This document shows positions 16,884 through 33,650 of a DNA stretch of 64,000 nt, piece by piece. Positions within the stretch are counted from its first letter, which is position 1. Each line of letters begins with the position of its first letter. The notes under the pieces were generated by a model that was not told the DNA's origin, did no database searches, and saw nothing but the letters and a program-made list of their open reading frames with translations. Source of the DNA: Minisyncoccota bacterium. Its GTDB lineage: Bacteria; Patescibacteriota; Minisyncoccia; Phycocordibacterales; Phycocordibacteraceae. The stretch covers positions 64,684 through 128,683 of the forward strand of contig JBAYHD010000002.1 in NCBI GenBank assembly GCA_041666305.1. Reading direction: 5' to 3'. The translations under genes and the position numbers were made by a program.

Positions 16884-19238
16884 TTATACCAGCCTTTTCC
16901 CGTCCATTGGAAGCATCACATAGAACGTTGTCCCTTTGCCTTCCTTCGAAATGAACCAGATCGAGCCGCCGATGATATCCACCATAATTTGAGACATGTA
17001 GAGACCGAGTCCGTTGCCATTGGGGTCTAGCTTTTTTGCATTTTCGGAACGGAAAAATTTCGTGAATATCTTATCCTGATCCGCTGCTGGTATACCGATA
17101 CCGTTGTCTTGCACAGAGACCAAGAGAGAATCCGCGTGTGCGGTTTTCCCGGCAACAACGCTTCCTTTGTCTACGGTTTCAAGTGCAACGAGTATCTGAC
17201 CGCCCTTTGATGAATATTTGATGGCATTACTGACGAAGTTCTGAGTGATGACCCGTACGAGATCCGCATCGGTGGTAACGGCCGGTATAGACTTCTGATA
17301 CCGCTCTATGACCCGAATATCTTTTTTCTCCGCATTCAGATGTAGTTCCGCCAGCACTGATTTTGCAACAAGGGTGAGATCGGTAGAGACAAGATTTTTT
17401 GTTTGTGTGCCCGATTCGATGCGCAGAATGTGCAGGAAGGATTTGATAATCTCGTTCATTTGTCGGCCGGCTTGATATATCTCATCGAAATATTCTTTCT
17501 GCTTCTTGTTTAGTTTCCCTGCGTCATCGTCAAGAAGCATCTCCGCGTACCAATTAACGACGGTCAGCGGGGTGCGCAATTGGTGCGACGCGAGCGATAT
17601 GAACTCGCTCTTCGCCGTATCTATCTCTTTTTCTCGCGTGATGTCCCGCTCCAGACCGACGAAGAAGATGATGTTCCCAGCGTCATCCATCACCGGCGAC
17701 ACGTTTATCATCGCGGTGTAGATCTCGCCATTTTTCCGTTTATTTTGTATTTCGCCGATAAAGGTCGTCTTGAGGTCCTTAATGGTATGCCAGAAGTTCT
17801 GATAATACTCTTTCGGCATCGGCTGTTTCCACAACGCTCCGGCCTTCTTCCCGAGAGCATCTTCTGCCCTATAGCCGGTAATTCGTTCCACGGCCGCGTT
17901 TGCATACACCACCATTCCCTCAGGATCAGAAATGATAACTTGATCTGAGGTGTCGTCCAGCGCCAATTTAAATTTCTTAAGATCGTTCGCGAGTGATTCA
18001 GCCCTTGTTTTTTCTTCGGCGAGCTTTTCTTCCTCCGTTTTCAGGTCTGCCGCGATATTGAGCGCAGCTTTTTCGCTATTTTTTGCCTCCTCCGTCTTTT
18101 CCGTGAGCGCCTTGGTCCGCTCCAAGACCTTCTTTTCAAGCGTCGCATACGCATCCTGAAGCCGCTCGATCATCGTATTCAGCGTGGCGGCAAGTATCCC
18201 CACCTCGTCTTTAGACGTCACCACGATGCTTTGTTGCGTGGCTCCTTGTGAGATTTTGCTCGCAAATTCAGTGACCTTGTTGATGGGACCGGTAATGGAG
18301 CGCGACATAGAAATGCCGATGAACACCATGAGCACGCCGACCATTGCTATAATAAAGAAGAATAACTCGCGCAATCTGACCACCGGCGCAAATGCTTCTG
18401 ACTTGTCTATTTTGACGACGATGCCCCAGCCGACGCTCGGGATGTATCGCGTTGCCGCAAACACTTTCACTCCGCGATAGTCCACAACATTATTGAAAAC
18501 GGCTTCCTCTCCTGCAACCGCATGTACTGAAGGAACATTTGTCTTGTCCGCGGTGACTACCCGCTCGAGCGCCGCACTGGGATCATAGCGGGTTGAGGTG
18601 AGAAATAGCGCGTTATTCCCACTCATCTTTTGCACGATGAGCGTCTCGCCGGTCTTACCCAACCCGGTAAAGTCATGCGCAACATCAACGATGTCATTGG
18701 CATCCGTCACCACTGCCATCACCCCTTCGGTCTTCCCGTTTGAAATGAGCGGACCGACAAGGTATTGCGACACGATGCCGGCGGCATCCTTCTCCAAAAT
18801 CGATTCGTCATTCGCGAGTACGCCGCGCTTGAAATAATCTTCATTCTCCTTATCAGTGCCTAGAAGCGCCGAGTCGGTTGAAGCGATAACGGCACCATCG
18901 AGCGTCATCACAAAGAGCTTCTTGATGCCCAAGGACCTCCCTGGTGCTTCAATCAAATCTTGGATTCTTTTTTTATTCGCGAGCGTCGGTTGCGCGTTAT
19001 AATCCCGCACATATGCGGTCAGCCAGGGGCTCTTGGTAAATAATTGTAAGATATCCAGCTTGTTCTGAAGGGTGTCCTGTAATCGATTCTTTTGTATAGC
19101 GGCGATTGCATCCAAATTTGAATACGTTTGACTGTTGATCTGCTCCTGCGAACTAAGGTACGCCAGGAAGCCGCCCAGTGCCCAGGGTATGAGCGATACT
19201 TGCAAGATGGTGAGGACGATCTTGGTGTTCAGTTTCAT
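16884..19238 (-). CDS. sensor histidine kinase (TM, periplasmic Cache-like, HAMP, PAS, HisKA, HATPase_c)
   Basis: 'SLASHQLRTPLT' H-box, PAS 'ISDPEGMVVYANAAVERITGY', G2 box 'GNGLGLYMS'. Confidence 0.85.
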   Translation of the reverse strand: MKLNTKIVLTILQVSLIPWALGGFLAYLSSQEQINSQTYSNLDAIAAIQKNRLQDTLQNKLDILQLFTKSPWLTAYVRDYNAQPTLANKKRIQDLIEAPGRSLGIKKLFVMTLDGAVIASTDSALLGTDKENEDYFKRGVLANDESILEKDAAGIVSQYLVGPLISNGKTEGVMAVVTDANDIVDVAHDFTGLGKTGETLIVQKMSGNNALFLTSTRYDPSAALERVVTADKTNVPSVHAVAGEEAVFNNVVDYRGVKVFAATRYIPSVGWGIVVKIDKSEAFAPVVRLRELFFFIIAMVGVLMVFIGISMSRSITGPINKVTEFASKISQGATQQSIVVTSKDEVGILAATLNTMIERLQDAYATLEKKVLERTKALTEKTEEAKNSEKAALNIAADLKTEEEKLAEEKTRAESLANDLKKFKLALDDTSDQVIISDPEGMVVYANAAVERITGYRAEDALGKKAGALWKQPMPKEYYQNFWHTIKDLKTTFIGEIQNKRKNGEIYTAMINVSPVMDDAGNIIFFVGLERDITREKEIDTAKSEFISLASHQLRTPLTVVNWYAEMLLDDDAGKLNKKQKEYFDEIYQAGRQMNEIIKSFLHILRIESGTQTKNLVSTDLTLVAKSVLAELHLNAEKKDIRVIERYQKSIPAVTTDADLVRVITQNFVSNAIKYSSKGGQILVALETVDKGSVVAGKTAHADSLLVSVQDNGIGIPAADQDKIFTKFFRSENAKKLDPNGNGLGLYMSQIMVDIIGGSIWFISKEGKGTTFYVMLPMDGKRLV

Positions 19239-19876
19239 TGGCTTTCTTCAGGATTCAGTATCCTCGTCAGGCCAAACCCGAGTACGATGAAACACGCCGC
19301 GGTGTTGAACGCCATCGGCACCGAATTGGCTGTGAATTCGTAATAGAGCTCGGGCAAGCTGAACATATATCCGATCACCGCAAAGCATCCGGTGAGGAGA
19401 ATGAAATATCCGGCGTAGCGGATGGACCGTTCGCGAAAGGCGCCAGCAAACAGCGCATCAATGCCCAGCAAAGCGAAAAGTGCGAAGCCAAACAATGTCG
19501 GCAAAGATGGCCAGCCCTCTATGGAAACAGCATTAGATAAATTGATGGGGCCAGCGGATTGAACAAATAACTCCTCTATCCCCGTCGGAGTACCGAGGAT
19601 CCAACTGACGAGAAGGGTCATCGTAATGAGGAAAATGACAAGAGCAATGCCCGGCAGCATCACGCGCGCGAGCTCATTTTCCTTTTCAATAGATAACGCC
19701 ATGGCATGCAAGCCCAGCGCACTGAAAAAGAAAAGAACGGCAGTGATGAATTTCATATTGATGCCGATCGGTATCAGTCGCGTCATCCACTCTACACCGA
19801 AGATCCAACCCGTCATCACAACGACGGATTCCGTGATGAGCACTCCTGCTACGATCTTCGTGGTGAGGTAGCGCAT
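19235..19876 (-). CDS. polytopic membrane protein (possible detached sensor membrane module)
   Basis: 5-6 TM helices; ATGA overlap with the kinase gene. Confidence 0.5.
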   Translation of the reverse strand: MRYLTTKIVAGVLITESVVVMTGWIFGVEWMTRLIPIGINMKFITAVLFFFSALGLHAMALSIEKENELARVMLPGIALVIFLITMTLLVSWILGTPTGIEELFVQSAGPINLSNAVSIEGWPSLPTLFGFALFALLGIDALFAGAFRERSIRYAGYFILLTGCFAVIGYMFSLPELYYEFTANSVPMAFNTAACFIVLGFGLTRILNPEESQ

Positions 19877-19883
19877 AGGTGCA

Positions 19884-20651
19884 TTATCGCACAGATGCCT
19901 CAAGTTTTTGCTTTAATTCTTCTATTTCATCCTTCAATTCCACCATCTTCAATTCGCGCCCTATCATTAATTCGTTGGCCCGTTCGAGATCGGTGACTTT
20001 TTCCTGCAATTCTCGTTCCCTCCTCTTGCGTTCAGTAATGTCTCTTGACACGCCGATAACACCCGTGATCTCTCCGGTATCACTCCGTATCGGTGTCACT
20101 ATTTCAAAGCAATATTCATTCACCGACCCCTCTTTGGTGTGGTGTACTTCTATAGAAACAGTCTTTCCATTCAGCGCCGAGTTGAACGCTTCTTTAAATT
20201 CAGTCTGGCTTTCAGGAGCGAGAGCTTCAATGAAGTTATGCCGCTTGGCATCCTCAACATCCTTGTAATGATGCTCCGCGAGCCCTCCTTTGTTTATGAA
20301 CGAGAGATTTCCTTTTGTGTCAAAAAGTTTGATGCAGTCGGGCGAGTTTTGCGCTAGTGCGGTGAACAATACATTTTCAACGGACAACACTTTATTTCTT
20401 TCAGATTCTTCCATATTTTTCCGGACCAGCGGCTTGAAAGCGAAGTAGTATAAGATCGGATACTCAATGAGCGTTAGCAACAGTGCATCAATGAAATTTT
20501 CCAGTGGTTGTATCGGCGGCAGATAGAACTGTATCAAAAACATAATGCCGAACTCCACAACGAAAATACTGACCAAAAGGACTATCAATAATCTGACAGG
20601 ATCAGAACTGAAAGGGACTCGTATCTTTTTTTCTTTTGGCGCCTCGTCCAT
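19884..20651 (-). CDS. membrane-anchored PAS-domain sensor protein without an output domain
   Basis: two TM helices, PAS fold, C-terminal coiled coil. Confidence 0.65.
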   Translation of the reverse strand: MDEAPKEKKIRVPFSSDPVRLLIVLLVSIFVVEFGIMFLIQFYLPPIQPLENFIDALLLTLIEYPILYYFAFKPLVRKNMEESERNKVLSVENVLFTALAQNSPDCIKLFDTKGNLSFINKGGLAEHHYKDVEDAKRHNFIEALAPESQTEFKEAFNSALNGKTVSIEVHHTKEGSVNEYCFEIVTPIRSDTGEITGVIGVSRDITERKRRERELQEKVTDLERANELMIGRELKMVELKDEIEELKQKLEASVR

Positions 20652-20665
20652 AGTGCGGGAGGCGC

Positions 20666-21037
20666 TTACTTGGCCTGCAGAAGAACGTTCTTTATTTTCT
20701 CAATGATCTCGTTGATAGGATGCTCTGACTTCACATAATAGTCGGCGGCGCCGAGCTGAAGCGAGCGTTTGATGTCGCTGTCTTCACCCAAATTGGAGAC
20801 GACGATGACCGGTATCACTTTCAGCTCCTCATCCTTCTTCAGCGCCTCAAGAACCTCAAAGCCGTTTTTCTTAGGTAACAGAAGGTCAAGTACTATGACA
20901 TCGGGCTTGAAACTTGCGGTAGAAACGAGGGCAGCTTCGCCGTCGCTCGCTACCTGAACTTCATAGCCGGATTTTTCCAATTTCTCTTGAAAAACTTTTG
21001 CGAGCACCTCCTCGTCTTCAACAATTAGGACTTTCAT
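20666..21037 (-). CDS. single-domain response regulator (receiver only)
   Basis: 'KVLIVEDEE', 'VIVLDLLLP', 'VSNLG..SD'. Confidence 0.8.
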   Translation of the reverse strand: MKVLIVEDEEVLAKVFQEKLEKSGYEVQVASDGEAALVSTASFKPDVIVLDLLLPKKNGFEVLEALKKDEELKVIPVIVVSNLGEDSDIKRSLQLGAADYYVKSEHPINEIIEKIKNVLLQAK

Positions 21038-21093: not shown

Positions 21094-23388
21094 CTAGCCC
21101 TTAGCTTGCTTCCTGATCTTGGCCAATACGGCCTTTGATTTCTTGTTTTCAGCGTCTGTCGCTTTCCTCCTCGCCTGTTCCTTGGCCAGCTTTTCTTTCG
21201 CCGTCTTTCTTTGCTTTGCGAGCGCAATTTCTGCCCTGTGTTTTTCAGCGAAAACAGTGCGTTCGATCATCTTCCTTCTCGCGGAGAGCGCGGTCCGCGT
21301 CTGACTGTTCTTTTTTTGCACGGCGTGCTCTTTCGCCCGTTTCTTCCGTAGGGTCGACTGCAATTTTTTCTTTTCTGCTATGACGATTCTCATCCGCTCT
21401 TTTTCACGGCGTATCGTTTCCTCTTCTTTTTTCTTACGAGCTGCGAGAGCAGTCTCAACTTGTTTGGCTTTAGCCCGAATTGCTTTCTCTTTTTCTCGCT
21501 CCTTACGAAGAGCTGTTTGCACTCTCCTTTTCGCATCAGCAACCAGTTTCTTTGCGCGCGTCTTTTCCTTCAGGAGAGCTCTTGCCTTCTTTCGTTTTTC
21601 CGCAGCGAGTGCTTTTTCTGCTTTCTTTTTCTCATTCGCGACGACTTTATCGGCGGCTTTTTTGCTTATCAGTGATGCGCTTGGCGCAGAATGTGCTTCT
21701 TTTTTATTTTCAAAAAATTCCGTCAATCCGCGGATTGCGTCCGCGTGCTTTATGCGTTCAGTTGCCATTACCTCTTCCGCAAGTTTTCGTTCTTCAACAA
21801 CGACCTCTTCCCTTTTTTGTTTTTCTATCTGTAGGGCCTTCGCTTCTTTTCTTTTTTCTTTGGCGAGAGCTGCCTCAGCTTGTCTCTTCAAAAGCCTCAA
21901 TCCTTCTGACTGATCCTTCGCTGAAAGGACCGCGTCGGCAAGACGTTTCTTCTCGGCGATGACTGCCTCGAATTTATTTTTTTCTGCCATGAGCTTTGCT
22001 TGGAAACGCTGCTTCTCACGAGCCAGTGCTGTTTCCGCAGCTTTGGCGCGACGCAATTCATCTTTCAGAGCAGTTTCCGCTTGATCCTTCAAAAGAAAAG
22101 CCTCGTCCGCTTGTTTTTTCTCCGAGAAAGCTTGTTCAGCAAATTGTTCTTTCTTTACGACCGCGCTGGCTGTTTTCGATTTTTCCTCGACTATCTTTGC
22201 GTTAACGCGTTTCTTTTCCCTCACCAGCGCTGCTTCGGCAGTCTCGGCGCGCTTCTTTTCTTCTGCGAGCTCTGCTTCCTTTATTTTTTCTTCGGCGAGC
22301 ACGGCGTCTGTGCGTTTCTTTTCCTTCGCGAGCGCCGCCTCAACCTCGCTCTTTAGGCGAAGCGCTTCCTCGGTTTGTTTCTTTGCCACGAGCACCTCCT
22401 CCGTCGTTTGCTTTTGTGCCGCTGTGGCCACGTCCGCCTCAGCGTATTGCCTCTTGATATCGGAAATAGCAGCTTTGGCCTTACTCTTTTCTTCAGCCAG
22501 TGCGACTTCCGCGTCCTCTGCACGCTTTTTTGTGTCCACAAGCGCTGCTTCGGCCTCGCTTTTCATGCGAAGAGCTTCTTCCGCTTGCTTTTTTGCTGCA
22601 AGGAACTCTTCTTCTGCACTGATTTTTGATGCAACAGTCTCCTCTTGAGATGGCTTCTTTTTAAGGTCGGAAATTATGGATTCAGACCGGTTCTTCTCCT
22701 CGGCCAACGCCGCTTCCGCGGCTTCTACATGCTTTCGTTCTAGAGCGAGTTCGTCCTCCGCTTGCTGTTTTTCCTTTTGGAGCTCGGCTTCCTTCTTTTC
22801 TTCTTCAGCAAGAGCATTTTCCGCTCGTTTCTTTTCCTCTTCAAGCGCCGCTTCTGCTTCGCTTTTCAGACGAAGAACTTCTTCCGCTTGCTTCGCCGCC
22901 GCGGAAACCTCTTCCGTTTGCTGTTTTTCTGTTGTCGCAGCCTCAGTTCCGACGGTTTCTTCCAACGGAACGGGAGTCGGCTCTTCTTTCGTTTCTGCGA
23001 CGGTAGTCGATATATCGATGCCTTTTTCCTCAAAATACGATTTAATCTTTGCGATCACTTCCTCGAACGGATGATCTGCTTTTACAAAATAATCCTTGGC
23101 ACCAAGCGACAACGCTGTCTTAATATCCTCGTCGCCTTGAAGATTCGACGTCACAAAAACGGGTATGTCCTGCAATGTCGGGCTTTCCTTCATTGCCTTC
23201 AACACGCCGAAGCCGTCCAGACGGGGCATCACGAGGTCCAATATCACCAGATCGATCTCGTGTTGCCGCAGTATGTTCAGCGCCTCCTCGCCGTCACCTG
23301 CCGTGAGAACATCCCACATTTGCGCCTCCAGCTTGCCCTGTTCTATGTGACGCAGGCTTTCATCATCTTCGGCGACGAGTATTCTCAT
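21094..23388 (-). CDS. response-regulator receiver domain fused to a ~640-aa K/E/A-rich repetitive coiled-coil tail (FrzS-like architecture)
   Basis: N-terminal REC ('ILVAEDDESL', 'LVILDLVMP'); remainder is a low-complexity Ala/Glu/Lys heptad-like repeat ('AKKQAEEALRMKSEAEAAL..KKRAEDAE.ALAEEK'). Confidence 0.75.
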   Translation of the reverse strand: MRILVAEDDESLRHIEQGKLEAQMWDVLTAGDGEEALNILRQHEIDLVILDLVMPRLDGFGVLKAMKESPTLQDIPVFVTSNLQGDEDIKTALSLGAKDYFVKADHPFEEVIAKIKSYFEEKGIDISTTVAETKEEPTPVPLEETVGTEAATTEKQQTEEVSAAAKQAEEVLRLKSEAEAALEEEKKRAENALAEEEKKEAELQKEKQQAEDELALERKHVEAAEAALAEEKNRSESIISDLKKKPSQEETVASKISAEEEFLAAKKQAEEALRMKSEAEAALVDTKKRAEDAEVALAEEKSKAKAAISDIKRQYAEADVATAAQKQTTEEVLVAKKQTEEALRLKSEVEAALAKEKKRTDAVLAEEKIKEAELAEEKKRAETAEAALVREKKRVNAKIVEEKSKTASAVVKKEQFAEQAFSEKKQADEAFLLKDQAETALKDELRRAKAAETALAREKQRFQAKLMAEKNKFEAVIAEKKRLADAVLSAKDQSEGLRLLKRQAEAALAKEKRKEAKALQIEKQKREEVVVEERKLAEEVMATERIKHADAIRGLTEFFENKKEAHSAPSASLISKKAADKVVANEKKKAEKALAAEKRKKARALLKEKTRAKKLVADAKRRVQTALRKEREKEKAIRAKAKQVETALAARKKKEEETIRREKERMRIVIAEKKKLQSTLRKKRAKEHAVQKKNSQTRTALSARRKMIERTVFAEKHRAEIALAKQRKTAKEKLAKEQARRKATDAENKKSKAVLAKIRKQAKG

Positions 23389-23412: not shown

Positions 23413-24876
23413 CTATGACTCTATCTCTTCCATGTTTTCGACTATATATTGCTTGTTCTTCGTTATACTGTCTGAAATGCGCGTGAGTACGATCTTCATT
23501 TCGTGCACTACTTGAGCGGTCAGGCCCGTATCATCCATTCGCGCCAATAGGTTGCCGACCTCTTTCTGAATGGCATCAAACGAGGTACGCACATCCCGTT
23601 GTGCGATAACAAGACGCCGCAATCGCTGTTCCTTTTGTTTCCGTCCTAAGTACCAGCCAAGCGCGCCGCTCGCAATGATCGCAAAAATGAGGATGAGGAT
23701 GAATGATGATTTGGTGACGCCGATGCCTCCGATCATGATGAGCGGGACTTCCGTAATATCCAACGTTACGCGGTTCTCGGTCGTATTCCCCGCCTTGTCT
23801 ACCGCTTGCACAACGAGACTATGCTTTCCCGCTTGCTGAGGAGAAAGCGTGTACTGCGTAAGCGTCGTCGTCGTCGCCAGATTGTTGTCGATCAGCACTT
23901 TGTAATTCAGTATGCCGGACGGTTGATCATTCGTCACAAAACGGATCGTCGGAGCGACATTCGCGGTCGTCAGACCATCGGGCGACGTAACCGCAAAGCC
24001 CAAGGGCGGAGTGGTGTCGATACCGATGCGATAATGCGCGGTCGAGCTCCACCCGAGAGAATTCTTGAATCGCACGTGCAGATACCATATGCCGTCGGAA
24101 AGAGGACTAAAGGTTTTATTGTTGAACAATCCTTCCGAGACCGTCGGATCAAATGCCGGCTGTTGGTTCACTGCCGTTGCGACATCGGTCACATCTCTGG
24201 GCAGGTCCCACTGCACGATGAATTTAGATACATCCGCATACCACGCTGTTGGATCGGGGTAGAGCGGAACGGTGAGAGTCGTTTTTGTCGGAAGCACCTT
24301 CGCTTCCACCACAGGACGCACGATCTGCTGAGGAGGCTTGATGACCGTAGGAGTTTGTGAGGTGGAGCTGGTGAGCTGCAGGCCGTTCATCGCTTTGAGC
24401 ACATTGGTTCCGCTGCCGTCGGAGGCCGTGACCGCACCATCGGTGAAGATGATGCTGACCGGACCCGCGCCGAGCACCTTGAATGCGATGCGAACCACTT
24501 CGAGCGCTTTGCCGGATATGCCGCTCTGGCTTCCGCCGATGAACGTAACCTGGCCGCTGTCATTTGAGAACGAGGGCCCCTGGAGCCAGAAATCAAACGC
24601 AGATGTGCTTTTGTCGATACCGGTCACTTGCACGGTCCCCTTCGGAAACGAGATAGTTCCCTGCGCGGCATTGACACCGACATCCGTGCTGTCGATCTTT
24701 ACGTCCACATTGAATGTGCTCCCCGCCGCAAACGTTTCTTTGTCAGTGGTGAGATTGTACGACGCAGCGAGCGCGTGGCTCGGTGCGGACGCGATGAACG
24801 CGATTGCGAGTAAGCTTCCGAGCACGAGCGTGCGTTTCGTGTATGTCATAGGTGAATTATACATCGACATTCCCAA
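23413..24876 (-). CDS. secreted/membrane-anchored surface protein with cohesin-like beta-sandwich domain (tentative), Ig-like region, C-terminal TM anchor
   Basis: signal peptide, alternating-hydrophobic beta-strand pattern 'FNVDVKIDS..GVNAAQGTISF', TM 'FILILIFAIIASGALGWYL' near the C-terminus. Confidence 0.55.
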   Translation of the reverse strand: MGMSMYNSPMTYTKRTLVLGSLLAIAFIASAPSHALAASYNLTTDKETFAAGSTFNVDVKIDSTDVGVNAAQGTISFPKGTVQVTGIDKSTSAFDFWLQGPSFSNDSGQVTFIGGSQSGISGKALEVVRIAFKVLGAGPVSIIFTDGAVTASDGSGTNVLKAMNGLQLTSSTSQTPTVIKPPQQIVRPVVEAKVLPTKTTLTVPLYPDPTAWYADVSKFIVQWDLPRDVTDVATAVNQQPAFDPTVSEGLFNNKTFSPLSDGIWYLHVRFKNSLGWSSTAHYRIGIDTTPPLGFAVTSPDGLTTANVAPTIRFVTNDQPSGILNYKVLIDNNLATTTTLTQYTLSPQQAGKHSLVVQAVDKAGNTTENRVTLDITEVPLIMIGGIGVTKSSFILILIFAIIASGALGWYLGRKQKEQRLRRLVIAQRDVRTSFDAIQKEVGNLLARMDDTGLTAQVVHEMKIVLTRISDSITKNKQYIVENMEEIES

Positions 24877-24878
24877 CG

Positions 24879-27800
24879 TTATTGTTTGAGAGTGCGGACA
24901 AAGATGCTCAAGTCGGTGACATCAACTTTTCCGTCGCCGTTGAGGTCGTCAAGTATGCGAACGGCCGTATCGGACGAAGAGAAACGCGAGAGGAAAATAC
25001 TCCAGTCCTGCACATTGATCACGCCGTCCTGATTGAAGTCGGTTTGCGGGGTGAGCAGTGTCGTCACATTGAACACCTTTTGGGGAGTATAATCGCTCTT
25101 CGCTCCAATGGGAGAAATTTGGCGTACACGGACGGTATGACTGCCGAGCGCGAGCGTACCGGTCGGGAGGAGCATTTTGTACGAACCGTCAGATTCGACG
25201 GGCGTTTCTGTAGGAATGGAAGTGCCATCAATTTCAGCTTCGACAGAATACCCGGGAATCGCCATTCCTACGAAACCAACCACATCATTTTGGCGGACGG
25301 TCGGATGCACGAGGCCCAAGGTCGGCGAAAGGAGACCGGCATCGAGATGGATGACCGGATTATTGCCTGAGTAACCCGCGTTGAACACTACGGTCTGGGT
25401 CGTGCGGCCGAGCGAGTCAATTCCAACAACGCCGTACGAACCGAGTCCGACCTGAATGTTTTTCAGCAACATCGAGAAGGCGCCGTTCGCTGCAGCGGTC
25501 GTCTGCGCCTGCAGTATCGACCCTTTCGGCGATACAGAGAGAACTTGTATTTTCGCGCCCGGAAATGCCAATCCCGAAAGTTGCTCGCCAATAACAATCG
25601 TTATTCCGGGAGCAACGGCGGTGGCGCTTACGCCCGACGACGGTGCGACAGGAGTTGCCGAGAATGTGATCTCCTGCGTCGAAGACACGTCGAGGTTCGT
25701 CCCTTCACTGTCAGACAGCGAGAGAGTCACTGTTTCGGGAGAAGTGTCCTGTAAGGACGCCGTTCCAACGCCGTTAACCATGGTCACGAGTCCGGCGCCG
25801 GTCGCCGAGCCAGTCACCAGGAGCGTCACGCCGGATTGGATCGTGGTGTCCACATTGCCGGAATTATCTTGCGCTTCGATGGTCACTGTTGCCGGCGTTC
25901 CGACCTGAACGGTCGAAGGTGGCAGAATGACGAAACGAGTGGCGACGATTGGTATCGTGCTCACCGTCACTGAATCAACAGCATCGAGGATGCCGGTGGA
26001 ACCATTCGGCGCGCCCGAACTGTCAGAAGCAGTGACCAGCCAGGTGCCGGGCTCTGCGTCGTAATACCAGAAATCGCCTGACGAATTGCCGTCATTGATA
26101 GTAGCGAAGGCTGTCGGTGCTCCGCCGACTGCCGCTGAATAAAATGCGGTTGTCGTCCCCGTCGAAGATGAACACAGGTACGCGAGCGTCACGCCCGCGG
26201 TAGTGGGATTATTGAACTGATCTTCGCGGGTCACGGTGTATCCGAGGCGCGTGCTGACTGTCATATTGCCGGGATCATTCAAGAGGAATTTCGCGACAGC
26301 GGCCGGCTGAATAGTAATCGCATCACTCGCATCGGCTACGCCCGCGCTATCCGGCGCGCTCGAGCTATCAGACACCGTTATGTACCAGTCGCCCGCTTTC
26401 TCATCGTATGCCCAGAAGCTGATTGCTGAAACGCCATCCGGAATGACAATGGATGTAATTGCGCTGCCACCGCTCGCGGCGTCATAGAATTTTTTGTTGA
26501 CGCCATCGGAGGTGCTATAGAGATACGCCGTTGTTGCGCCGGCCGTGACCAAATTTCCGTACTGATCTTTACGACTGACGGTGTATCCGATCCTCGCTCC
26601 CGCCGCCACGTCTCCGGGATTATTAAGCGCGAATTGCGCGACCGCTCCGGCAGCGAAGGTCACTCCTTGAGTCGAAGACACGTTAAGATTTGTCGTTTGA
26701 CTGTCAACAAGTGACAGCGTGACGACTTCAGGAACCGTATCGGATATCGGGATCGTTCCGACACCGCTTGCAATGGTCACGAGCCCTCCGCCAGTCGCCG
26801 TGCCGCTTGTGTTGAGCGTCACTCCGATATTTTGAGTGGTGTCCACATTGCCGGAATTATCTTGTGCCTGCACCGTAACGGTAATCGGCGCGTCAACGGT
26901 ACCACTCGTCGGAGGAAGTATCACAATGCGTGTCGCGACAATAGGAGCCGCGGTAACCCCCACCGAGTCGGTAGCGTCAGCGACGCCGCTCAATCCATCT
27001 GGGACGGATGGATTATCAGAAGCGGTCACGGTCCATGTCCCGAGATTTGAATCGGCATACCACACTTGGGCAGATGACTGGCCGTCCGGAATGGTGATTG
27101 AAGTGATCACCGTGCCGTTCGTATCAGCGTCATAGAACGCAGGAGTATCGACTCCGGTCGAATTGCTATACATATATACCGTTGTAGCGCCGTCAGTAAC
27201 TAGGTTATTGAATTGGTCCTTTCGAGTCACGGTGTAGCCAAGGCGCGTATCGGCAGTCATGTCGCCCGGATTATTGAGCGAGAAAGAGGCAACCGAACCT
27301 GCAGTCACCACAAGAGAGTCGGTGGCATCGTTGATGCCGGTGTTGCCGTCCGGTGCAGATATATTATCGGAAGCGGTCACAGTCCATGTTCCCGGCAACT
27401 CGTCGTAATACCAGACATCCGCCGTTGATTGACCGTCACTTATGGTGATTGAAGTTATTTCAGTGCCGTTTATCGCGGCATTATAAAATTTCTTATTCAC
27501 ACCGGTCGATGAACTGTAGAGATACACGACATTTGAACCGAGAGAACTCACATTGCCGTATTGGTCTTTGCGCGTAATCGTGTATGCCGCACGCTCGCCC
27601 GCAGCCAATGTTGCTGGGTGATTGAGCGTGAACTGTGAGACCGTTCCGCCGGCAAACACAACTGACTGCGTCGACGAAACATCCAAGCCGGTACTCTGTG
27701 AGTCAGTCAAAGAGAGATCCACGGTCTCGGCAACCGTATCTGAAATGGATAGTGTTCCAACACCGTTGATGATATCTACCAATCCTCCGCCGGTAGCGGA

Positions 27801-30326
27801 ACCGGTCGTGTCCAAGGTCACGTCATTTTGATAATTCGTGTCCACACTGTTGTCGGGCTTTTGTGCCTGCACAGTGACCGTGATAGAAGCATCCACCGTG
27901 CCATTCGTCGGCGGTAGTATGACGAATTTCGTAGCGACCGGGTTTACGACCACAGAATCGGTCGCGTCAGCAATGCCGGTATTACCGTCAGCATTCGGAG
28001 TGGCATCAGACGCCGTAATGGTGTAGGTCCCCGGCGTCTCATCGTAGTACCAGAAGTTGGCTGTCGAGTAGCCGGGAGCAATATCGATGTAGGTAATCTC
28101 CGAGCCGGCGAGAGAATCATCGTAGAATTTTTTCGTACCGCTTGAGGAGTTGGAATAGAGATAGACTCTGTTTGTTCCCGTACCAACCGCGTTCCCTGAA
28201 AAATCGTTTCTACTCACGGTATACCCGAGCCGGGTTCGGGCGTACATATCTCCCGGATTATTGAGCGAAAAGGACGTAACGACTCCACCGGTCACGGTAA
28301 AGGCGGCAGAGGTACCGGTCTTCGTCCCTCCGTTGTCGGTTGCGGTGATGGTCTTGCCGGAACCAGCTGTTGTCACCGTCACACTTTCCGTGCGTTCACC
28401 TGATACGAAGGCGCCGGACTCCGTGGGCGCGATGGTGCCTGCGGTTGTAGAAAGATCAACAGTGCCTGAATATCCGGTCACGGTGTTGTTGTTCACGTCC
28501 TGCGCCATAATCGTTATGTTGAACGGGGTACCGGCTGCTTGGGTGGTGATTGCCGCGAAAGAGAAATGATCAAGAGCACCGGGATTCACGGTGAACGTCG
28601 AGGAGGTGCCGGTCTTCGTTCCTCCATTATCGGTAGCGGTGATGGTTTGAAGAGTGCCGGCCTGCGTAACGGTCACGCTTTCGGTACGCACACCGGAGCT
28701 GAAGGCACTCGATTGCGTCGGCGCGATGGTGCCTGCAGTCGTCGAGAGATCAACGGTGCCCGAATAGCTGGCCAGTGTGTTGTTATTCACATCCTGCGCT
28801 GTGATGGTGATGTTGAAAGCGGTACCGGCGGTCTGTGTTCCGATAGCGGCGATGGCAAAGTGATCAAGGGTGCCGGCAGTAACGGTGAATGACTGATCCA
28901 CATCTGCAGCGGCGTTGTAGTTGCTGTTGCCGGATTGCGAGGCGCGAATGGTGCAAGTGCCCGTAGAGACAAGGTGGACGGTTGCGGTACTCACAGTACA
29001 GACGCCGGTCGTTTGCGACGAGAAGGTGACCGTGAGGCCGGATGAGGCTGTTGCGCTGACCGCGAAGTCGGGATCACTGAGCGTCTTGTCCGAAAGTGCA
29101 CCAAACGTGATGGTCTGATTCGCCGTATTGATGACGAAGTTCCCTGCCGAGGCGCCCGTCAAACTTTTATAACTCGTGGTGTCGGTCGGCGTGAAGTTGG
29201 CGGTGACGGCATAGGTGCCGACGTTGGTCTGCGTTGCAACGCCACCCGTAAGGATATTGCTTGCCGTACCCGGTACAGAACCCGAGACTGTGGCAGCTTG
29301 TCCGGAGCCATTGTAGGTGACAGGAGAATTCGTCACCGAAAGAGTCGGTGTCGCGCGAGTATCGTTCGTAACACTCAACATGCCAGTCGTTGCTGCGAAA
29401 TAGGTGTTGTTTTGATGAGTTGCCGTGGAGCTTGTTGAACCCCATGTGCCATTGATGCGGCCGAGACCGCCGAGCGTCAGATTTGCTACCGTCAGTGTAA
29501 GCCCGGCCCCGACACTTGCAGTCACCGAGCCCGTCGGTGCAATGCTCATCGTGCCGCTAACCGAAGTTCCAGTTACCATCGTCGCCGCACCGCTTCCAGA
29601 GAGCGTGAGATTCACATAACTGGCGGGCTCGATCGCTTGCGCTGAACCGTTATAATTAATTGTGTTTCCGGCTCCGGTTGCGGTGAGCGTGACATTAGCA
29701 GATGGCGTAAATGCCCCATTGATATTGAGCACAGAACTCGCACCTTGCACCCATATGGCAGTGCCGCTCGTTCGTGCGTAATTGCCATTCAGAGTAACGG
29801 TCCCATTGTTTGTAACTGTTTTCCCCGGAGAATTAATATTGTTGTTGATCGTTATATTTGCGGTGGAAGAAAAGGAGAAATTTTGGGTTACCAATATACT
29901 CGTATCTATCACTCCACTCCCATCGATAGTTTTTCCAGCGGAGTTCGATTTAAGAATCCCCGATGTCCCAGTAATTGATCCGTTGACCACAACGTTTCCG
30001 TTTTCCGTAAGCGTAAACGCACCGGCAAAGTTCAAAATAGCGCCAGAGTTTACGGTAAGACCGGCATTTGTTTTATTCGCACTGATAGTCACATTATTTC
30101 CGCCGGTCGTCGCAATAATGACACTGTCGGCATTTGCGGGAACCACGCCACCAATCCATGTTGACGCCGTAGCCCAATTGCCTCCGGTCGCAGTACTTGT
30201 CCTTACTGCAGCAAATGCGGTGCTTGCACCACCGAGCGTCATCAGCATCGTTAATGCGAATACAAAACTATACCTGCCGACTCTTGCGAACAAGGAGAAG
30301 AATGCGAGGCGGTGGTTGGTAGTCAT
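24879..30326 (-). CDS. giant surface adhesin-like protein with beta-helix N-terminus, ~6 tandem ~100-aa Ig-like modules and C-terminal dockerin
   Basis: signal peptide; Thr/Gly/Asn-rich beta-helix repeats; repeated module '...VYLYS.S.G..K.FYD....G..ITSI.I.DG.S.A..WYYD..PGTW.VTASD'; C-terminal 'DFNQDGVINVQD...DLNGDGKVDVTD' duplicated Ca-binding dockerin segments. Confidence 0.8.
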   Translation of the reverse strand: MTTNHRLAFFSLFARVGRYSFVFALTMLMTLGGASTAFAAVRTSTATGGNWATASTWIGGVVPANADSVIIATTGGNNVTISANKTNAGLTVNSGAILNFAGAFTLTENGNVVVNGSITGTSGILKSNSAGKTIDGSGVIDTSILVTQNFSFSSTANITINNNINSPGKTVTNNGTVTLNGNYARTSGTAIWVQGASSVLNINGAFTPSANVTLTATGAGNTINYNGSAQAIEPASYVNLTLSGSGAATMVTGTSVSGTMSIAPTGSVTASVGAGLTLTVANLTLGGLGRINGTWGSTSSTATHQNNTYFAATTGMLSVTNDTRATPTLSVTNSPVTYNGSGQAATVSGSVPGTASNILTGGVATQTNVGTYAVTANFTPTDTTSYKSLTGASAGNFVINTANQTITFGALSDKTLSDPDFAVSATASSGLTVTFSSQTTGVCTVSTATVHLVSTGTCTIRASQSGNSNYNAAADVDQSFTVTAGTLDHFAIAAIGTQTAGTAFNITITAQDVNNNTLASYSGTVDLSTTAGTIAPTQSSAFSSGVRTESVTVTQAGTLQTITATDNGGTKTGTSSTFTVNPGALDHFSFAAITTQAAGTPFNITIMAQDVNNNTVTGYSGTVDLSTTAGTIAPTESGAFVSGERTESVTVTTAGSGKTITATDNGGTKTGTSAAFTVTGGVVTSFSLNNPGDMYARTRLGYTVSRNDFSGNAVGTGTNRVYLYSNSSSGTKKFYDDSLAGSEITYIDIAPGYSTANFWYYDETPGTYTITASDATPNADGNTGIADATDSVVVNPVATKFVILPPTNGTVDASITVTVQAQKPDNSVDTNYQNDVTLDTTGSATGGGLVDIINGVGTLSISDTVAETVDLSLTDSQSTGLDVSSTQSVVFAGGTVSQFTLNHPATLAAGERAAYTITRKDQYGNVSSLGSNVVYLYSSSTGVNKKFYNAAINGTEITSITISDGQSTADVWYYDELPGTWTVTASDNISAPDGNTGINDATDSLVVTAGSVASFSLNNPGDMTADTRLGYTVTRKDQFNNLVTDGATTVYMYSNSTGVDTPAFYDADTNGTVITSITIPDGQSSAQVWYADSNLGTWTVTASDNPSVPDGLSGVADATDSVGVTAAPIVATRIVILPPTSGTVDAPITVTVQAQDNSGNVDTTQNIGVTLNTSGTATGGGLVTIASGVGTIPISDTVPEVVTLSLVDSQTTNLNVSSTQGVTFAAGAVAQFALNNPGDVAAGARIGYTVSRKDQYGNLVTAGATTAYLYSTSDGVNKKFYDAASGGSAITSIVIPDGVSAISFWAYDEKAGDWYITVSDSSSAPDSAGVADASDAITIQPAAVAKFLLNDPGNMTVSTRLGYTVTREDQFNNPTTAGVTLAYLCSSSTGTTTAFYSAAVGGAPTAFATINDGNSSGDFWYYDAEPGTWLVTASDSSGAPNGSTGILDAVDSVTVSTIPIVATRFVILPPSTVQVGTPATVTIEAQDNSGNVDTTIQSGVTLLVTGSATGAGLVTMVNGVGTASLQDTSPETVTLSLSDSEGTNLDVSSTQEITFSATPVAPSSGVSATAVAPGITIVIGEQLSGLAFPGAKIQVLSVSPKGSILQAQTTAAANGAFSMLLKNIQVGLGSYGVVGIDSLGRTTQTVVFNAGYSGNNPVIHLDAGLLSPTLGLVHPTVRQNDVVGFVGMAIPGYSVEAEIDGTSIPTETPVESDGSYKMLLPTGTLALGSHTVRVRQISPIGAKSDYTPQKVFNVTTLLTPQTDFNQDGVINVQDWSIFLSRFSSSDTAVRILDDLNGDGKVDVTDLSIFVRTLKQ

Positions 30327-30476
30327 GAGGGTGTAAAAATAATGGTATCTGCATATAATATAGAGCAATTCAGCCATTGTTTTTGCCATTTCGTAAAATA
30401 TGTGTGGATAGTAAGGATGGAATGCGCATGCTCATGTATGGCATGACGGGCGAAAGTCTGGTATAAAAATAGGTAC

Positions 30477-30549
30477 GGCCTCATCGTCTAACGGCTAGGA
30501 CAGATCCCTCTCACGGATCAAATCGGGGTTCGATTCCCCGTGAGGTCAC
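30477..30549 (+). tRNA. tRNA-Glu (anticodon CUC)
   Basis: cloverleaf folded by hand: acceptor GGCCUCA/UGAGGUC, D arm GUC..GAC, anticodon stem GAUCC/GGAUC with loop CUCUCAC, T arm CGGGG-UUCGAUU-CCCCG, discriminator A. Confidence 0.85.
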
Positions 30550-30556
30550 CCGCAAG

Positions 30557-30581
30557 TAAAAACCGCCCTAGAGCGGTTTTT
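30557..30581. terminator. bidirectional terminator between tRNA-Glu and murF
   Basis: aaaaaccgc-cctaga-gcggttttt. Confidence 0.6.
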
Positions 30582-30621
30582 ACTTTACAAAATATGACTT
30601 TCTCGTCTCGGATACGCAAGA

Positions 30622-31896
30622 TTATGAGCGTTCGCGCCACTTTTTTTCTTGCCGGACGAGCTTCACGACGTCGCTTTTTTTTGCGAGCAATGCCTCAACA
30701 ATGCGTTCAGTACGAACGGATTGTGAGCCCTTCACGAGAATAACGTCGCCTTCTCGAATGAGCTCTGCAAGCGCAGACGCGGCACTGCGAGAATTATCAA
30801 ATTGCATCACTTCGGCTCCATTTGACGCGATGGTGAAGGCACGTGCACGTATGCCAACGGTGACGATGACGTCGGCAGACGCCCCTGCAAGTACCGCAAT
30901 GCGTTCATGTTCCATGACCGAATAGCGGCCGAGTTCAAGCATATCGCCAAGAACGGCAATGCGGCGTTTCGCGTGCGGAAACATCTTTAGCGTATTCAAC
31001 GCTTCTTCAACTGCTGCAGGCGAAGCATTGTACGAATCATCAATGATGGTCGCTCCATTTCTACCAACAAGAAGTTTTCCTCTGCCCGATGGTGCTTCAT
31101 AGTTCTCCAGTGCGAGCAATGCTTCTTGCAATGGTATTTCAAAAGCGTTTGCAATAGCAATTGCAGCGGCTATCGGCGATACTTGCGTTGTGCCAACCGA
31201 TCCTTTAACGATGCACTGCCCGTGTTCGCCACGCACACTGACTGTTGTTTGCATACCCTCGACCTTGTCGTCGATTTCATAAAAATTGGTGTCACGCATG
31301 CGCACCGTTGCGTTCTCCGTATAACCATACGAAATAATGCGCGCCGGTGTGCGTATCGCGCTCTCAAGCGTGTACTCGTCATCGACGGGCACGATGAGCG
31401 GTGCGCCCGCCCTAAGTGCATGCGCCGGAGAAAATTCTTCTTCGCGCACCGCATCTGGTGACGGATATGCTTCCACGTGCACTGGGATCTCCGGCAATCG
31501 CGTCACCACGACCGCATCCGGCGTGGCGAATCGCAATATGCGCGCCAAATCACCCGGTTTGTCTGCACCGACTTCAAGCACGAGCATATTCGGATAGTGG
31601 TTCGGTAGGATCATGAGTGCGACCGCACTCCTCAATACCGACAACCATGCAAAGGGGTCGTTCCACGGGTTCCCCACGCCAAGTATGGTGAACGGCACGC
31701 CGAATTCGCTATTAAAACTCTTTTCGCTCTTCCGCACATAAAATCGCGTCGCAAGCGCAGCCGCTACGGCATCCTTCGTGGAAGTCTTCCCTACTGAGCC
31801 GGTGACCATAATAATGCGCGGCTGGTATCGGTGCAGCACGGATCGTGCGAAAAAGGCGAGGAAGAATACCGCTATGGCTTTCAGGATGTTTTTCAT
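30622..31896 (-). CDS. murF: UDP-N-acetylmuramoyl-tripeptide--D-alanyl-D-alanine ligase
   Basis: Mur ligase P-loop 'GSVGKTSTK', central and C-terminal Mur ligase domains; ATGA overlap with ftsI. Confidence 0.85.
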   Translation of the reverse strand: MKNILKAIAVFFLAFFARSVLHRYQPRIIMVTGSVGKTSTKDAVAAALATRFYVRKSEKSFNSEFGVPFTILGVGNPWNDPFAWLSVLRSAVALMILPNHYPNMLVLEVGADKPGDLARILRFATPDAVVVTRLPEIPVHVEAYPSPDAVREEEFSPAHALRAGAPLIVPVDDEYTLESAIRTPARIISYGYTENATVRMRDTNFYEIDDKVEGMQTTVSVRGEHGQCIVKGSVGTTQVSPIAAAIAIANAFEIPLQEALLALENYEAPSGRGKLLVGRNGATIIDDSYNASPAAVEEALNTLKMFPHAKRRIAVLGDMLELGRYSVMEHERIAVLAGASADVIVTVGIRARAFTIASNGAEVMQFDNSRSAASALAELIREGDVILVKGSQSVRTERIVEALLAKKSDVVKLVRQEKKWRERS

Positions 31897-33650
31897 GGAG
31901 TGGTGGCTTGCGATGCGGTACTGGTACTCGTAGTAAAGCCGCGATCAGGGGGCACCGCGTAATAGTCTATGAGGAAATGGACAAGGTCAAGGAAGCTCGA
32001 GGAAAGCGTGTCGGAAGCGTAGGTAACGTGCTGGGGATCATTGGTATAGAGCAGAATGATAAAGCGCGGATTGTAGGACGGGAAGAATCCGACGAAAGAG
32101 TGGAAATAACGGTCGGTATAGTACCCGCCCTGACCGTTCGTGAGCTGGGCGGTTCCGGTCTTCGCCGCAACCGACATCGTGGGGATCATCGCTTTGCCGT
32201 TCTGGAGTTTTTCATCAACGACCGCCGTCATCATCTCGGTCGTCTCACGTGCGGCTGTTGCGGAAAATACCGGCGTCGTCTGACCCCAATCAATAGCGCG
32301 TTCAATGCCGGAATTCAGGCGCACGGCGCTTGCAAGATGTGGTTCCACCATCACTCCGCCGTTCGCTATCGCGCCCAGGGCACGGATCATTTGCAACGGC
32401 GTCACGGCAATGCCCTGTCCGTATGCCGCAGTATCGTAGCCGACCTGCTGGGGCTTCGTGAGGTTACTGAGCAAGGCGCCGCTTTCGTTCGGCAGATCAA
32501 TGCCGGTCTTCTGACCGAAGAGTTTGGTGAAATACGCCCGAAAATTATCCTGCCCCAACTGCGTCGCCACCCACGCGGCGCCGATGTTGAGCGATTGCAC
32601 GATGATCTGCTTCATAGGAATGACGCCGCGCGGTTTAAGATCCCAATTGCAGATCGTCGCCGTGTTGACCGTGATGCACCCAGTATCTTTGTACGTCGTT
32701 TGCGGCGTAATGACTCCCGCATCAAGCCCCGACGTCATAGTGAGCGGCTTCATGATGGAACCGAATTCGTGCACGTGCTCCACAAATGGATTCCCAAGGA
32801 TTGCAGGATCGACATTTTGCAGGACGTTCGCGTCGTAAGACGGATTGCTGGCAATAGCAAGGATAGCGCCCGTACGGGGATCCATGATGATCCCGCCTGA
32901 TTCTTTGCTGGCATATTTCTGGCTCACCTTCGCGAGGTCGTCTTCAAGATGCGTCTGCACCTCCGGTTCGATAGTCGTCACGATATCGCCCTCGCGCGCA
33001 TCTTTCGCCGCGACGAGCATATTGCCGACATTGGAAAAAAGCTCCGCGAAGAAATTCCTATACAGCGAATCCCCGGAACGCAGAAGGGTCTCATCATAGG
33101 TAGCCTCAAGCCCCGTCTGCCCCGCAAGCGTATCGCCCAAGCCATAAGACACGATGCCGATGGATTGCGCCGCAAGCGTTCTTCCCGGGTACTGCCGCCA
33201 ACGTTCCCGAAGCACCTGCACGCCGGTTATATTTTTATCCGAAAGGGACTGCCCTGCTTCTTCGGAAAGATGGTGCGCAACTTCAATGTACACCTGGTTC
33301 TTTTTTGCGGCCGCCGTAAGAAATGCGTCGCGCGAGATCGCATCGGGAGCGACGTTCGTTATGGCCGCATACGCGTTTTCAGGATTCCCAAGCGTTTGCG
33401 GATTTATGGCAACAAGGAATCCGGTGGAGAGCGTCGCCGCAGATATGAGCGTTTCGTCCTTTCGCGTAAAATAAATAGCGCCTCGATCAAAGAGACCGCC
33501 GCCGCCGGAAGCGAATTGTTTATCCGCTTTTTGCGCATACTCGTCCCCATGAATGATTTGTATAAAATAGAGGCGCACAATGATCATGAGCGCCACGAGT
33601 ATGACGAACGCGAGAACGAGGCGTATACGTGAGCGGAACTGCGCGCGCAT
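31893..33650 (-). CDS. ftsI: penicillin-binding protein / peptidoglycan D,D-transpeptidase FtsI-like
   Basis: N-terminal TM, dimerisation domain, transpeptidase motifs 'SIMK', 'KTGTAQ'. Confidence 0.85.
   Translation of the reverse strand: MRAQFRSRIRLVLAFVILVALMIIVRLYFIQIIHGDEYAQKADKQFASGGGGLFDRGAIYFTRKDETLISAATLSTGFLVAINPQTLGNPENAYAAITNVAPDAISRDAFLTAAAKKNQVYIEVAHHLSEEAGQSLSDKNITGVQVLRERWRQYPGRTLAAQSIGIVSYGLGDTLAGQTGLEATYDETLLRSGDSLYRNFFAELFSNVGNMLVAAKDAREGDIVTTIEPEVQTHLEDDLAKVSQKYASKESGGIIMDPRTGAILAIASNPSYDANVLQNVDPAILGNPFVEHVHEFGSIMKPLTMTSGLDAGVITPQTTYKDTGCITVNTATICNWDLKPRGVIPMKQIIVQSLNIGAAWVATQLGQDNFRAYFTKLFGQKTGIDLPNESGALLSNLTKPQQVGYDTAAYGQGIAVTPLQMIRALGAIANGGVMVEPHLASAVRLNSGIERAIDWGQTTPVFSATAARETTEMMTAVVDEKLQNGKAMIPTMSVAAKTGTAQLTNGQGGYYTDRYFHSFVGFFPSYNPRFIILLYTNDPQHVTYASDTLSSSFLDLVHFLIDYYAVPPDRGFTTSTSTASQATTP

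Follow-up and report, generated by a model that had tools for sequence, protein, structure and literature searches.

Several described systems resemble parts of the locus considered here. In Clostridium thermocellum, the anchors OlpA and OlpC are attached to the wall by S-layer homology (SLH) domains and receive enzymes as cargo. In Ruminococcus flavefaciens, the cohesin of ScaE binds the XDoc of the adhesin CttA; ScaE itself is sortase-anchored to peptidoglycan and stands within a large cellulosome system with many dockerins. To our knowledge, the attachment of Candidate Phyla Radiation (CPR, or Patescibacteria) members to their hosts is a central open question, of which almost nothing is known outside Saccharibacteria. 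Non-cellulosomal cohesins and dockerins are well known (surveyed by Peer et al. 2009, as cited in PMC9012536), and anaerobic methanotrophic (ANME) archaea are among the examples. A dockerin-domain envelope protein, SEML1_0315, is essential in Southlakia epibionticum, a cultivated Saccharibacterium; the authors of that work offered, as speculation, that the protein promotes host adhesion (PMC10633639). The present analysis concerns 64,000 nucleotides of contig JBAYHD010000002.1 (assembly GCA_041666305.1, positions 64,684 to 128,683; this whole stretch is called the window), in which adjacent genes encode a giant secreted protein with a putative C-terminal dockerin and a membrane protein with a predicted cohesin domain. 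Sequence comparison and structure prediction favour, with a probability that we put at roughly three in four, a dedicated, non-cellulosomal, membrane-anchored cohesin-dockerin pair holding a variable Ig-repeat fibre on the surface of an uncultured, ultra-small member of the Paceibacterota (CPR).

The interval 23413-30389 of the window is occupied by two minus-strand open reading frames (ORFs) in the same orientation. The ORF list and translation confirmed the 1836- and 487-amino-acid products that a preliminary description of this DNA had placed there. The giant protein gene (24879..30389, minus strand) has 1836 codons for amino acids in the Joint Genome Institute (JGI) record as well, and M22 at 30326 is a possible true start. 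The cohesin anchor gene (23413..24876, minus strand) encodes 487 amino acids if read from a TTG and 478 from the ATG at 24849 (residue 10), the latter being the length in both NCBI and JGI. The NCBI entry, from a metagenome-assembled genome (MAG) of Candidatus Paceibacterota, bears the name 'cohesin domain-containing protein'. The stop codon of the giant gene lies 29 nucleotides from the anchor ATG.

By sequence, the giant protein is predicted to end in a canonical two-segment calcium-binding dockerin (amino acids 1783-1836; 24882..25043, minus strand), made of the loop and helix segments DFNQDGVINVQDWSIFL and DLNGDGKVDVTDLSIFV. The C-terminal end reads DFNQDGVINVQDWSIFLSRF...DLNGDGKVDVTDLSIFVRTLKQ, and its two 12-residue loops, DFNQDGVINVQD at 25005-25040 and DLNGDGKVDVTD at 24912-24947, match a DxNxDGxxxxxD-type pattern that occurs nowhere else in the six frames of the window. 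The units DFNQDGVINVQD-WSIFLSRF and DLNGDGKVDVTD-LSIFVRTL stand at the very end of the protein, the second starting 31 residues after the first. This is the type I dockerin layout, with two loop and helix segments and the positions D1, N/D3, D5 and D12. In agreement with the dockerin of the preliminary description, the isolated 65-amino-acid tail scored 29.0 bits (E 1.3e-6) on Pfam Dockerin_1 (PF00404), above the cutoff of 22.9, and its best PDB sequence matches were the solved dockerins 2y3n_B, 4fl4_A, 1daq, 2mte, 3ul4_B and 6kgc_B, mixed with EF-hand proteins; E values were 3e-4 to 6e-3 for 2y3n_B, 4fl4_A, 1daq and 2mte. The NCBIfam model dockerin_GC scored 21.6 against its cutoff of 29, and EF-hand models gave 21-26 bits, somewhat under Dockerin_1. 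Among 73 orthologous tails, D1, N3, D5, G6 and D12 of the loops and S14 and F16 of the helices are conserved in both halves, a symmetry which points to the duplicated layout of dockerins. Relatives carry precomputed PF00404 annotations, and a homologue search with the last 260 amino acids of the giant returned eight proteins, mostly fragmentary and too few for a census of dockerin proteins.

The N-terminal domain of the anchor (amino acids 38-172; 24361..24765, minus strand) is, on its modelled fold and the annotation of its orthologues, a divergent cohesin. PF00963 was detected at E <= 0.01 in 22 of 39 aligned full-length orthologues that are 42-75% identical (best E 1.2e-9), and many of the 532 homologues that make up the anchor family have precomputed PF00963. 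The family profile gave weak cohesin matches in the PDB (E 0.04-0.8). The AlphaFold2 model, made from 23 aligned sequences and covering residues 37-172, is all-beta, with a mean predicted local distance difference test score (pLDDT) of 94.3 and a predicted template modelling score (pTM) of 0.87, and adopts the cohesin fold, an elongated jelly-roll beta-sandwich. The 50 best PDB structures retrieved for it by Foldseek are all cohesins (E 3e-8 to 3e-6, template modelling scores 0.63-0.77), spanning cellulosomal types I, II and III as well as non-cellulosomal modules from C. perfringens and A. fulgidus. The assignment rests on the combination of the orthologue matches and this cohesin-only set of folds.

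The association of the two genes extends far beyond the window. Relatives of the anchor were found in 153 genomes of the class in a scan of one genome per species, and 80 loci were kept. In 74 of the 80, a two-loop dockerin terminates the product of the plus-strand ORF that ends between -20 and +180 nucleotides before the cohesin gene. At least 74 related species have the pair, and the proteins with this ending range from 447 to over 3,300 amino acids. On three contigs with orthologues of 42-72% identity, a giant (1307, 1553 or 3360 amino acids), a cohesin anchor and a single-domain response regulator follow in that order, and all three giants end in the same cassette of two beta-sandwiches and a dockerin. 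The gene pairing also holds in L001-L005.

Individual loci depart from this arrangement. A receiver-domain gene rather than a dockerin gene lies directly 5' of the cohesin gene in L063, L079 and L085, an 85-amino-acid ORF is all that precedes it in L029, possibly a frameshifted or decayed dockerin gene, and the dockerin of L038 is broken by a masked run of N. Several module-bearing MAGs, among them L017, L018, L037, L045, L064 and L070, are labelled 'uncultured Candidatus Saccharibacteria' or 'uncultured Gammaproteobacteria', which is probably coarse or wrong automated taxonomy.

A profile search of 1.84 billion representatives returned mostly single-cohesin anchors of 470-610 amino acids, together with some two-cohesin variants and unrelated multi-cohesin scaffoldins that scored high by summation. 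The two-cohesin variants comprise P0136 and about 20 other representatives of 650-900 amino acids. P0136 aligns to the window anchor twice, first over a signal-like segment, cohesin and Ig domain, then over a second signal-like segment, cohesin and FN3 tandem; it resembles two tandem paralogues that have fused or been merged in gene calling.

Since cohesins and dockerins are the hallmark modules of cellulosomes, and the same search brought up the scaffoldin P0132 beside a GH44 gene, a minimal cellulosome-like enzyme complex for polysaccharide degradation has to be considered. It is hardly credible for this locus: each anchor has one cohesin, and no glycoside hydrolase, carbohydrate-binding module or carbohydrate esterase domain was found in the giant or its neighbours. 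P0132 reaches its score by summing nine domains, and its gene context is another one. The cellulosome reading was rejected for the single cohesin and the lack of enzymes, and P0132 and P0140, both multi-cohesin proteins ranked high by domain summation, were set aside as a different system. P0132 (L087, 4650-11480) is a 2276-amino-acid scaffoldin-like protein whose nine cohesins are accompanied by Big_7 and fn3 modules and, at the C-terminus, a dockerin; on its flanks lie the GH44 gene, a pair of cupredoxin genes and two small cohesin proteins, a genuine cellulosome-like locus.

The sequences of the two predicted partners diverge together. Pairwise distance matrices were compared for five modules, namely cohesin, dockerin, stalk, tail and response regulator. 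The correlation between cohesin and dockerin (r 0.62) exceeds that between cohesin and stalk (r 0.55), which lie within one polypeptide. In partial Mantel tests with the other modules controlled, cohesin-dockerin coupling was r 0.48 (p 0.001) over 41 loci and r 0.45 (p 0.0005) over 21 loci. The same covariation can be followed in a divergent clade (L014, L017, L018, L037 and L039), in which the dockerins have an inter-segment linker of about 25 residues and the helices DISIYLSYL and DLSILLHAAG, and the cohesins have TAGDGTGANIL in place of TASDGSGTNVL and IWAQ (IWAQEP) in place of FWLQ. This coupling fits a co-evolving interface.

These results bear on the possibility that the two genes are neighbours by coincidence, with an EF-hand-like tail that merely stabilises the giant with Ca2+ and a cohesin fold that binds a glycan, a wall polymer or some other ligand. 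Such an arrangement would be compatible with the scores of the tail on EF-hand models and the EF-hand proteins among its PDB matches, and with the lack of a Pfam match in the window cohesin. It is nevertheless highly improbable given the adjacency in 74 of 80 loci despite complete turnover of the remaining upstream protein, the coupled divergence of cohesin and dockerin, and the two-segment dockerin layout with its symmetric helix residues. A minimal anchoring pair outside any cellulosome, as proposed in the preliminary description, gains support from the one cohesin, the lack of a catalytic domain, the 74/80 adjacency and the coupled divergence.

The part of the giant that would be displayed is long, modular and variable. 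A probable Sec signal peptide, read from the translation (amino acids 22-60, ...TLGGASTAFA|AV; 30210..30326, minus strand), precedes a Gly/Asn/Thr-rich head of about 285 residues (amino acids 61-345; 29355..30209, minus strand), which belongs to no Pfam family and is conserved in 8-10 of the 80 loci, the closest relatives only. The sole support for the 'beta-helix-like' N-terminus of the preliminary description is a weak match of this head (E 0.07) to a beta-helical antifreeze protein. Two Ig-like modules recognised in the translation, with no family over threshold, follow at amino acids 346-507 (28869..29354, minus strand). Next come two 'A' repeats that are 80% identical and weakly invasin/Big_1-like (amino acids 508-600 and 606-698; 28296..28868, minus strand; Invasin_D3 E 0.004), in a region where Tandem Repeats Finder reported a period of 294 (28309-28889). 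Eight modules of about 105-120 amino acids then occupy 25659..28292 (minus strand) and are common to about half of the related loci, five of type B (amino acids 700-820, 914-1028, 1029-1143, 1248-1364 and 1365-1479) and three of type C (820-925, 1153-1258 and 1484-1577). BLAST with repeat seed fragments thus resolved ten modules of three families in the order AA-BC-BBC-BBC; BLAST of the whole protein against itself gave the identity match alone and no repeats. The six or so tandem modules of about 100 amino acids in the preliminary description are therefore too few: ten were found, with the two Ig-like modules before them and two conserved beta-sandwich domains after them. The latter (amino acids 1578-1782; 25044..25658, minus strand; Big_6 E 1.7e-5, CarboxypepD_reg E 2.4e-4) immediately precede the dockerin and are present in 61-76 of the 80 loci. 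Searches of Pfam and the PDB with the giant body gave nothing over threshold, the weak matches being Invasin_D3, Big_1, Big_6 and the antifreeze beta-helix, and Pfam searches detected no catalytic or carbohydrate-binding domain.

When the window's giant was compared with the 80 loci by tblastn, its C-terminal 270 or so amino acids were conserved in about 75, its B/C repeats in about half and its N-terminal 500 or so amino acids in 8-10. This gradient indicates that the anchoring cassette stays constant while the distal part attached to it changes rapidly.

In the direction of transcription, the genes of the region are a penicillin-binding protein (PBP) and a Mur ligase, then a terminator and a tRNA-Glu on the plus strand, then the giant, the cohesin anchor, a response regulator with a coiled coil, a second response regulator, a PAS protein, a membrane protein and a histidine kinase. 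The PBP transpeptidase and Mur ligase genes belong to a dcw (division and cell wall) cluster directly 5' of the module (30622-33650, minus strand), which also contains mraZ, rsmH and a small ftsL-like ORF. The sequence shows a hairpin and T run, AAAACCGCTCTAGGGCGGTTTTT, at about 30560-30582, immediately after the Mur ligase stop, and ARAGORN placed the tRNA-Glu(CTC) gene at 30477..30550 on the plus strand, opposite to all flanking genes. Because these two elements divide the dcw-type genes from the giant gene, the module probably has its own promoter. A consensus promoter and terminator scan of 16.5-31 kb gave counts equal to or under the shuffled expectation and so was uninformative.

This neighbourhood raises the alternative of a structural envelope component, a housekeeping surface layer or spacer (S-layer-like or division-linked) rather than a host adhesin. 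The module would then serve a core function, as its presence in 153 species genomes of the class suggests, and it follows mraZ, rsmH, ftsL, PBP and Mur ligase genes in the window and its nearest relatives, L001-L003; a generic Ig-like body with no recognisable ligand-binding domain would also be in keeping with it. The dcw adjacency is, however, confined to the closest relatives, in three of the 80 loci, and is gone in more distant ones, and in the window the terminator-like hairpin and the opposite-strand tRNA separate the module from the dcw genes. The head and the length of the giant, moreover, vary enormously (from 447 to over 3,300 amino acids), which is typical of diversifying interface proteins and not of a lattice. 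A structural role of this kind is accordingly judged unlikely.

The rest of the anchor protein is predicted to have a type-I topology, with the cohesin and two FN3/Ig domains outside, one transmembrane (TM) helix and a helical hairpin inside. Its translation begins with a signal-like segment ending ALA|AS, and, as the preliminary description had it, the protein is a putative secreted one with a C-terminal TM segment and a cytoplasmic tail, here of 76 amino acids. The AlphaFold2 model of residues 186-487 (pLDDT about 80) has two beta-sandwiches and a TM helix continuous with a long helix in the cytoplasm, after which a second helix returns. The tandem FN3/Ig-like stalk (amino acids ~206-376; 23749..24261, minus strand) is supported by this model, Foldseek, Big_13 (E 4e-8) and invariant columns, and its sandwiches match FnIII tandems, SiiE and the Fn3 modules of CbhA. 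The TM helix (amino acids ~390-411; 23644..23709, minus strand), continuous in the model, is followed by the positive-inside sequence RKQKEQRLRR. The cytoplasmic helical hairpin tail (amino acids 412-487; 23416..23643, minus strand), defined by the alignment and the model, contains the motifs IAQRDV and Y..EN.EEIE and had no match in profile searches of the PDB and Pfam.

The first stalk domain has the most conserved motifs of the whole anchor (LYPD..WY, WYLHVRFKN and IDTxPP). At amino acids ~206-290 it is better conserved than the cohesin itself, with W212, F219, W223, G249, F251, G262, L266, F270, G275, D287 and PP290-291 invariant. Such conservation suggests that this domain has its own binding role, perhaps in oligomerisation or in contact with the wall.

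The third conserved member of the module is a single-domain CheY-like response regulator of 123 amino acids (20666..21037, minus strand; Response_reg E 2.5e-24), which has the acidic VEDEE, the acceptor Asp in VLDLLLP, the Ser in VVSNL and the Lys in YYVKS. Of 71 determinable loci, 60 have a receiver-only gene directly beside the pair and in the same orientation; it is 3' of the cohesin gene in 42 and 5' of the dockerin gene in 24, six loci having both. Its position beside the pair is thus conserved, the window copy keeps its phospho-acceptor residues, and a functional link between regulator and pair is probable. The preliminary description had guessed at such a link, which proves stronger than it supposed; it had also placed the pair downstream of a two-component cluster, which in the sense of transcription is reversed, the two-component genes being 3' of the pair.

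Between the regulator and the anchor gene, 24 nucleotides 3' of the latter, a 764-amino-acid protein (21094..23388, minus strand; Response_reg E 2e-19) combines a receiver with a Lys/Glu/Ala-rich coiled coil of about 640 amino acids. Its position matches that of a strongly negative AT skew, -0.27 to -0.29, over 20-24 kb. The anchor gene is likewise followed by a long receiver ORF in L007 (742 amino acids) and L033 (573 amino acids), but not in the nearest relative, L001. Beyond the regulator, Pfam identified a PAS protein, a small membrane protein and a dCache-HAMP-PAS histidine kinase (16884..20651, minus strand), a cluster also present in L001.

Of all couplings among the five modules, that between tail and regulator was the strongest (partial Mantel r 0.61, p 0.001, 41 loci). 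It was r 0.41 (p 0.0025) in 21 loci in which the regulator lies 5' of the dockerin gene, kilobases from the DNA of the tail, and coupling between dockerin and regulator in the 21-locus set was about 0. This is a hint, not proof, that the anchor tail contacts the response regulator. It allows a reading that is compatible with anchoring, in which the anchor is a single-pass receptor that would pass fibre load or ligand engagement through the TM helix to a hairpin binding the CheY-like regulator; the flow could also be reversed, with the phosphorylated regulator altering the anchor from inside. The conserved tail motifs IAQRDV and Y..EN.EEIE in a modelled long and return helix of no known family would suit such a role, as would a receiver-only gene on either side of the pair in most loci and a tail coupling that persists when the genes are distant while the dockerin shows none. 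Mirror-tree statistics are, on the other hand, indirect, stalk-regulator coupling also reached 0.36 in the control set, and 11 loci have no adjacent regulator. The tail is also fast-evolving (mean p-distance 0.71-0.75), so that alignment error and saturation matter for its coupling. A signalling role for the anchor is therefore put forward tentatively. Its fullest form is an adhesion-sensing device, integrin-like by analogy, in which a docked fibre, FN3 stalk, TM helix and hairpin would directly engage the CheY-like regulator, and we regard it as doubtful.

For the pair as a dedicated surface anchor, the following mechanism is proposed. Both proteins would be exported via Sec-type signal sequences, and the C-terminal dockerin of the giant would plug into the anchor cohesin in a Ca2+-dependent manner. 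The FN3 stalk may hold the cohesin away from the membrane and through the wall, with the Ig-like chain of about 1,700 amino acids and the variable head projecting as a fibre whose most plausible purpose is attachment, to a host cell or to a surface. Through the conserved cassette of two sandwiches and dockerin, one anchor would serve fibres that differ greatly, with lengths of 447 to over 3,300 amino acids. The domain identities, the topology, the conserved gene order and the coupled divergence come directly from the analysis; binding of the pair, its Ca2+ dependence and the adhesive role are what we infer from these sequences, and the origin of the window in a Paceibacterota MAG fits the idea of an epibiont.

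Several points weigh against this reading. The full-length giant scored 18.3 bits on Dockerin_1, under the cutoff of 22.9, with the match covering model positions 2-56 of 57. The window cohesin protein and its isolated N-domain gave no PF00963 match even at E <= 10, and the protein had no cohesin match by sequence in Pfam, NCBIfam or the PDB. The window copy thus literally fails the family model by which the cohesin-like domain of the preliminary description was to be judged, a failure overturned by the 22 of 39 orthologues and by AlphaFold2 and Foldseek. The coupling of cohesin and dockerin is indirect evidence, confounded by the common phylogeny of the loci and by the fact that the two coding segments lie next to each other in the DNA. 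No recognisable ligand-binding domain was detected in the giant by Pfam search, and its adhesin role is deduced from the Ig-like repeats. Finally, the cohesin or the dockerin may have other partners elsewhere in the genome.

If the anchoring reading is right, the locus is a concrete and testable candidate for host attachment in the CPR. The distal end and the length of the fibre would be changing fast between species, as expected of a host-recognition structure. The use of cohesin and dockerin would be extended to a TM-anchored, 1:1 and genetically fixed pair beside a response regulator. Should the coupling of tail and regulator reflect a true contact, surface attachment would be linked to signalling in very small genomes; should the sensing device prove true, it would be the first cohesin-dockerin system wired to signal transduction, coupling the attachment of ultra-small epibionts to two-component signalling. 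Surface fibres of uncultured Paceibacteria could also be labelled or pulled down by way of this pair, and the divergent clade described above offers a natural specificity-swap pair.

The individual domains are already known, being named in public annotation; among the papers searched, none links cohesin or dockerin to Parcubacteria or Paceibacteria and none describes the module. Among described proteins, SEML1_0315 is alike in being a dockerin-bearing envelope protein of a CPR epibiont, a likeness by description only; it belongs to a different CPR class, and no cohesin partner is named in PMC10633639. Single-pass receptors with FN3 stalks are comparable in layout only, by analogy, with a binding domain, an FN3 tandem, one TM helix and a cytoplasmic segment, and the ectodomains of cytokine and insulin receptors are among the fold matches of the stalk.

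The glycosidase and toxin complexes of C. perfringens (2jh2, 2vo8 and 2w1n) and the A. fulgidus module 2xdh share with this locus the use of cohesin or dockerin outside cellulose degradation. Among the folds matched by the window cohesin, 2jh2, a cohesin-like module of C. perfringens, ranks best (E 2.9e-8), and Archaeoglobus fulgidus 2xdh was also matched. In those non-cellulosomal cases the modules are scattered on enzymes or are of unknown pairing, whereas the operon described here is conserved class-wide and combines a 1:1 pair and a membrane anchor with a regulator next to them. The ScaE-CttA system is alike in that a cohesin-dockerin link holds an adhesion protein, not an enzyme, on the surface, as is proposed here; unlike in CttA, two beta-sandwiches precede the dockerin here and no X-module was identified. 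With OlpA and OlpC (PDB 3ul4 and 4dh2, both among the fold matches of the window cohesin model) the locus would share the direct capture of a dockerin-bearing protein by one envelope-anchored cohesin. It differs from them in the TM helix and conserved cytoplasmic tail, in the non-enzymatic repeat-fibre cargo and in the fixed syntenic gene pair. What sets the locus apart, in this comparison, is a predicted TM anchor, with a cytoplasmic tail that is conserved, where the known systems rely on SLH or sortase attachment, and a fixed 1:1 operon across a CPR class, with hypervariable non-enzymatic cargo and a flanking response regulator.

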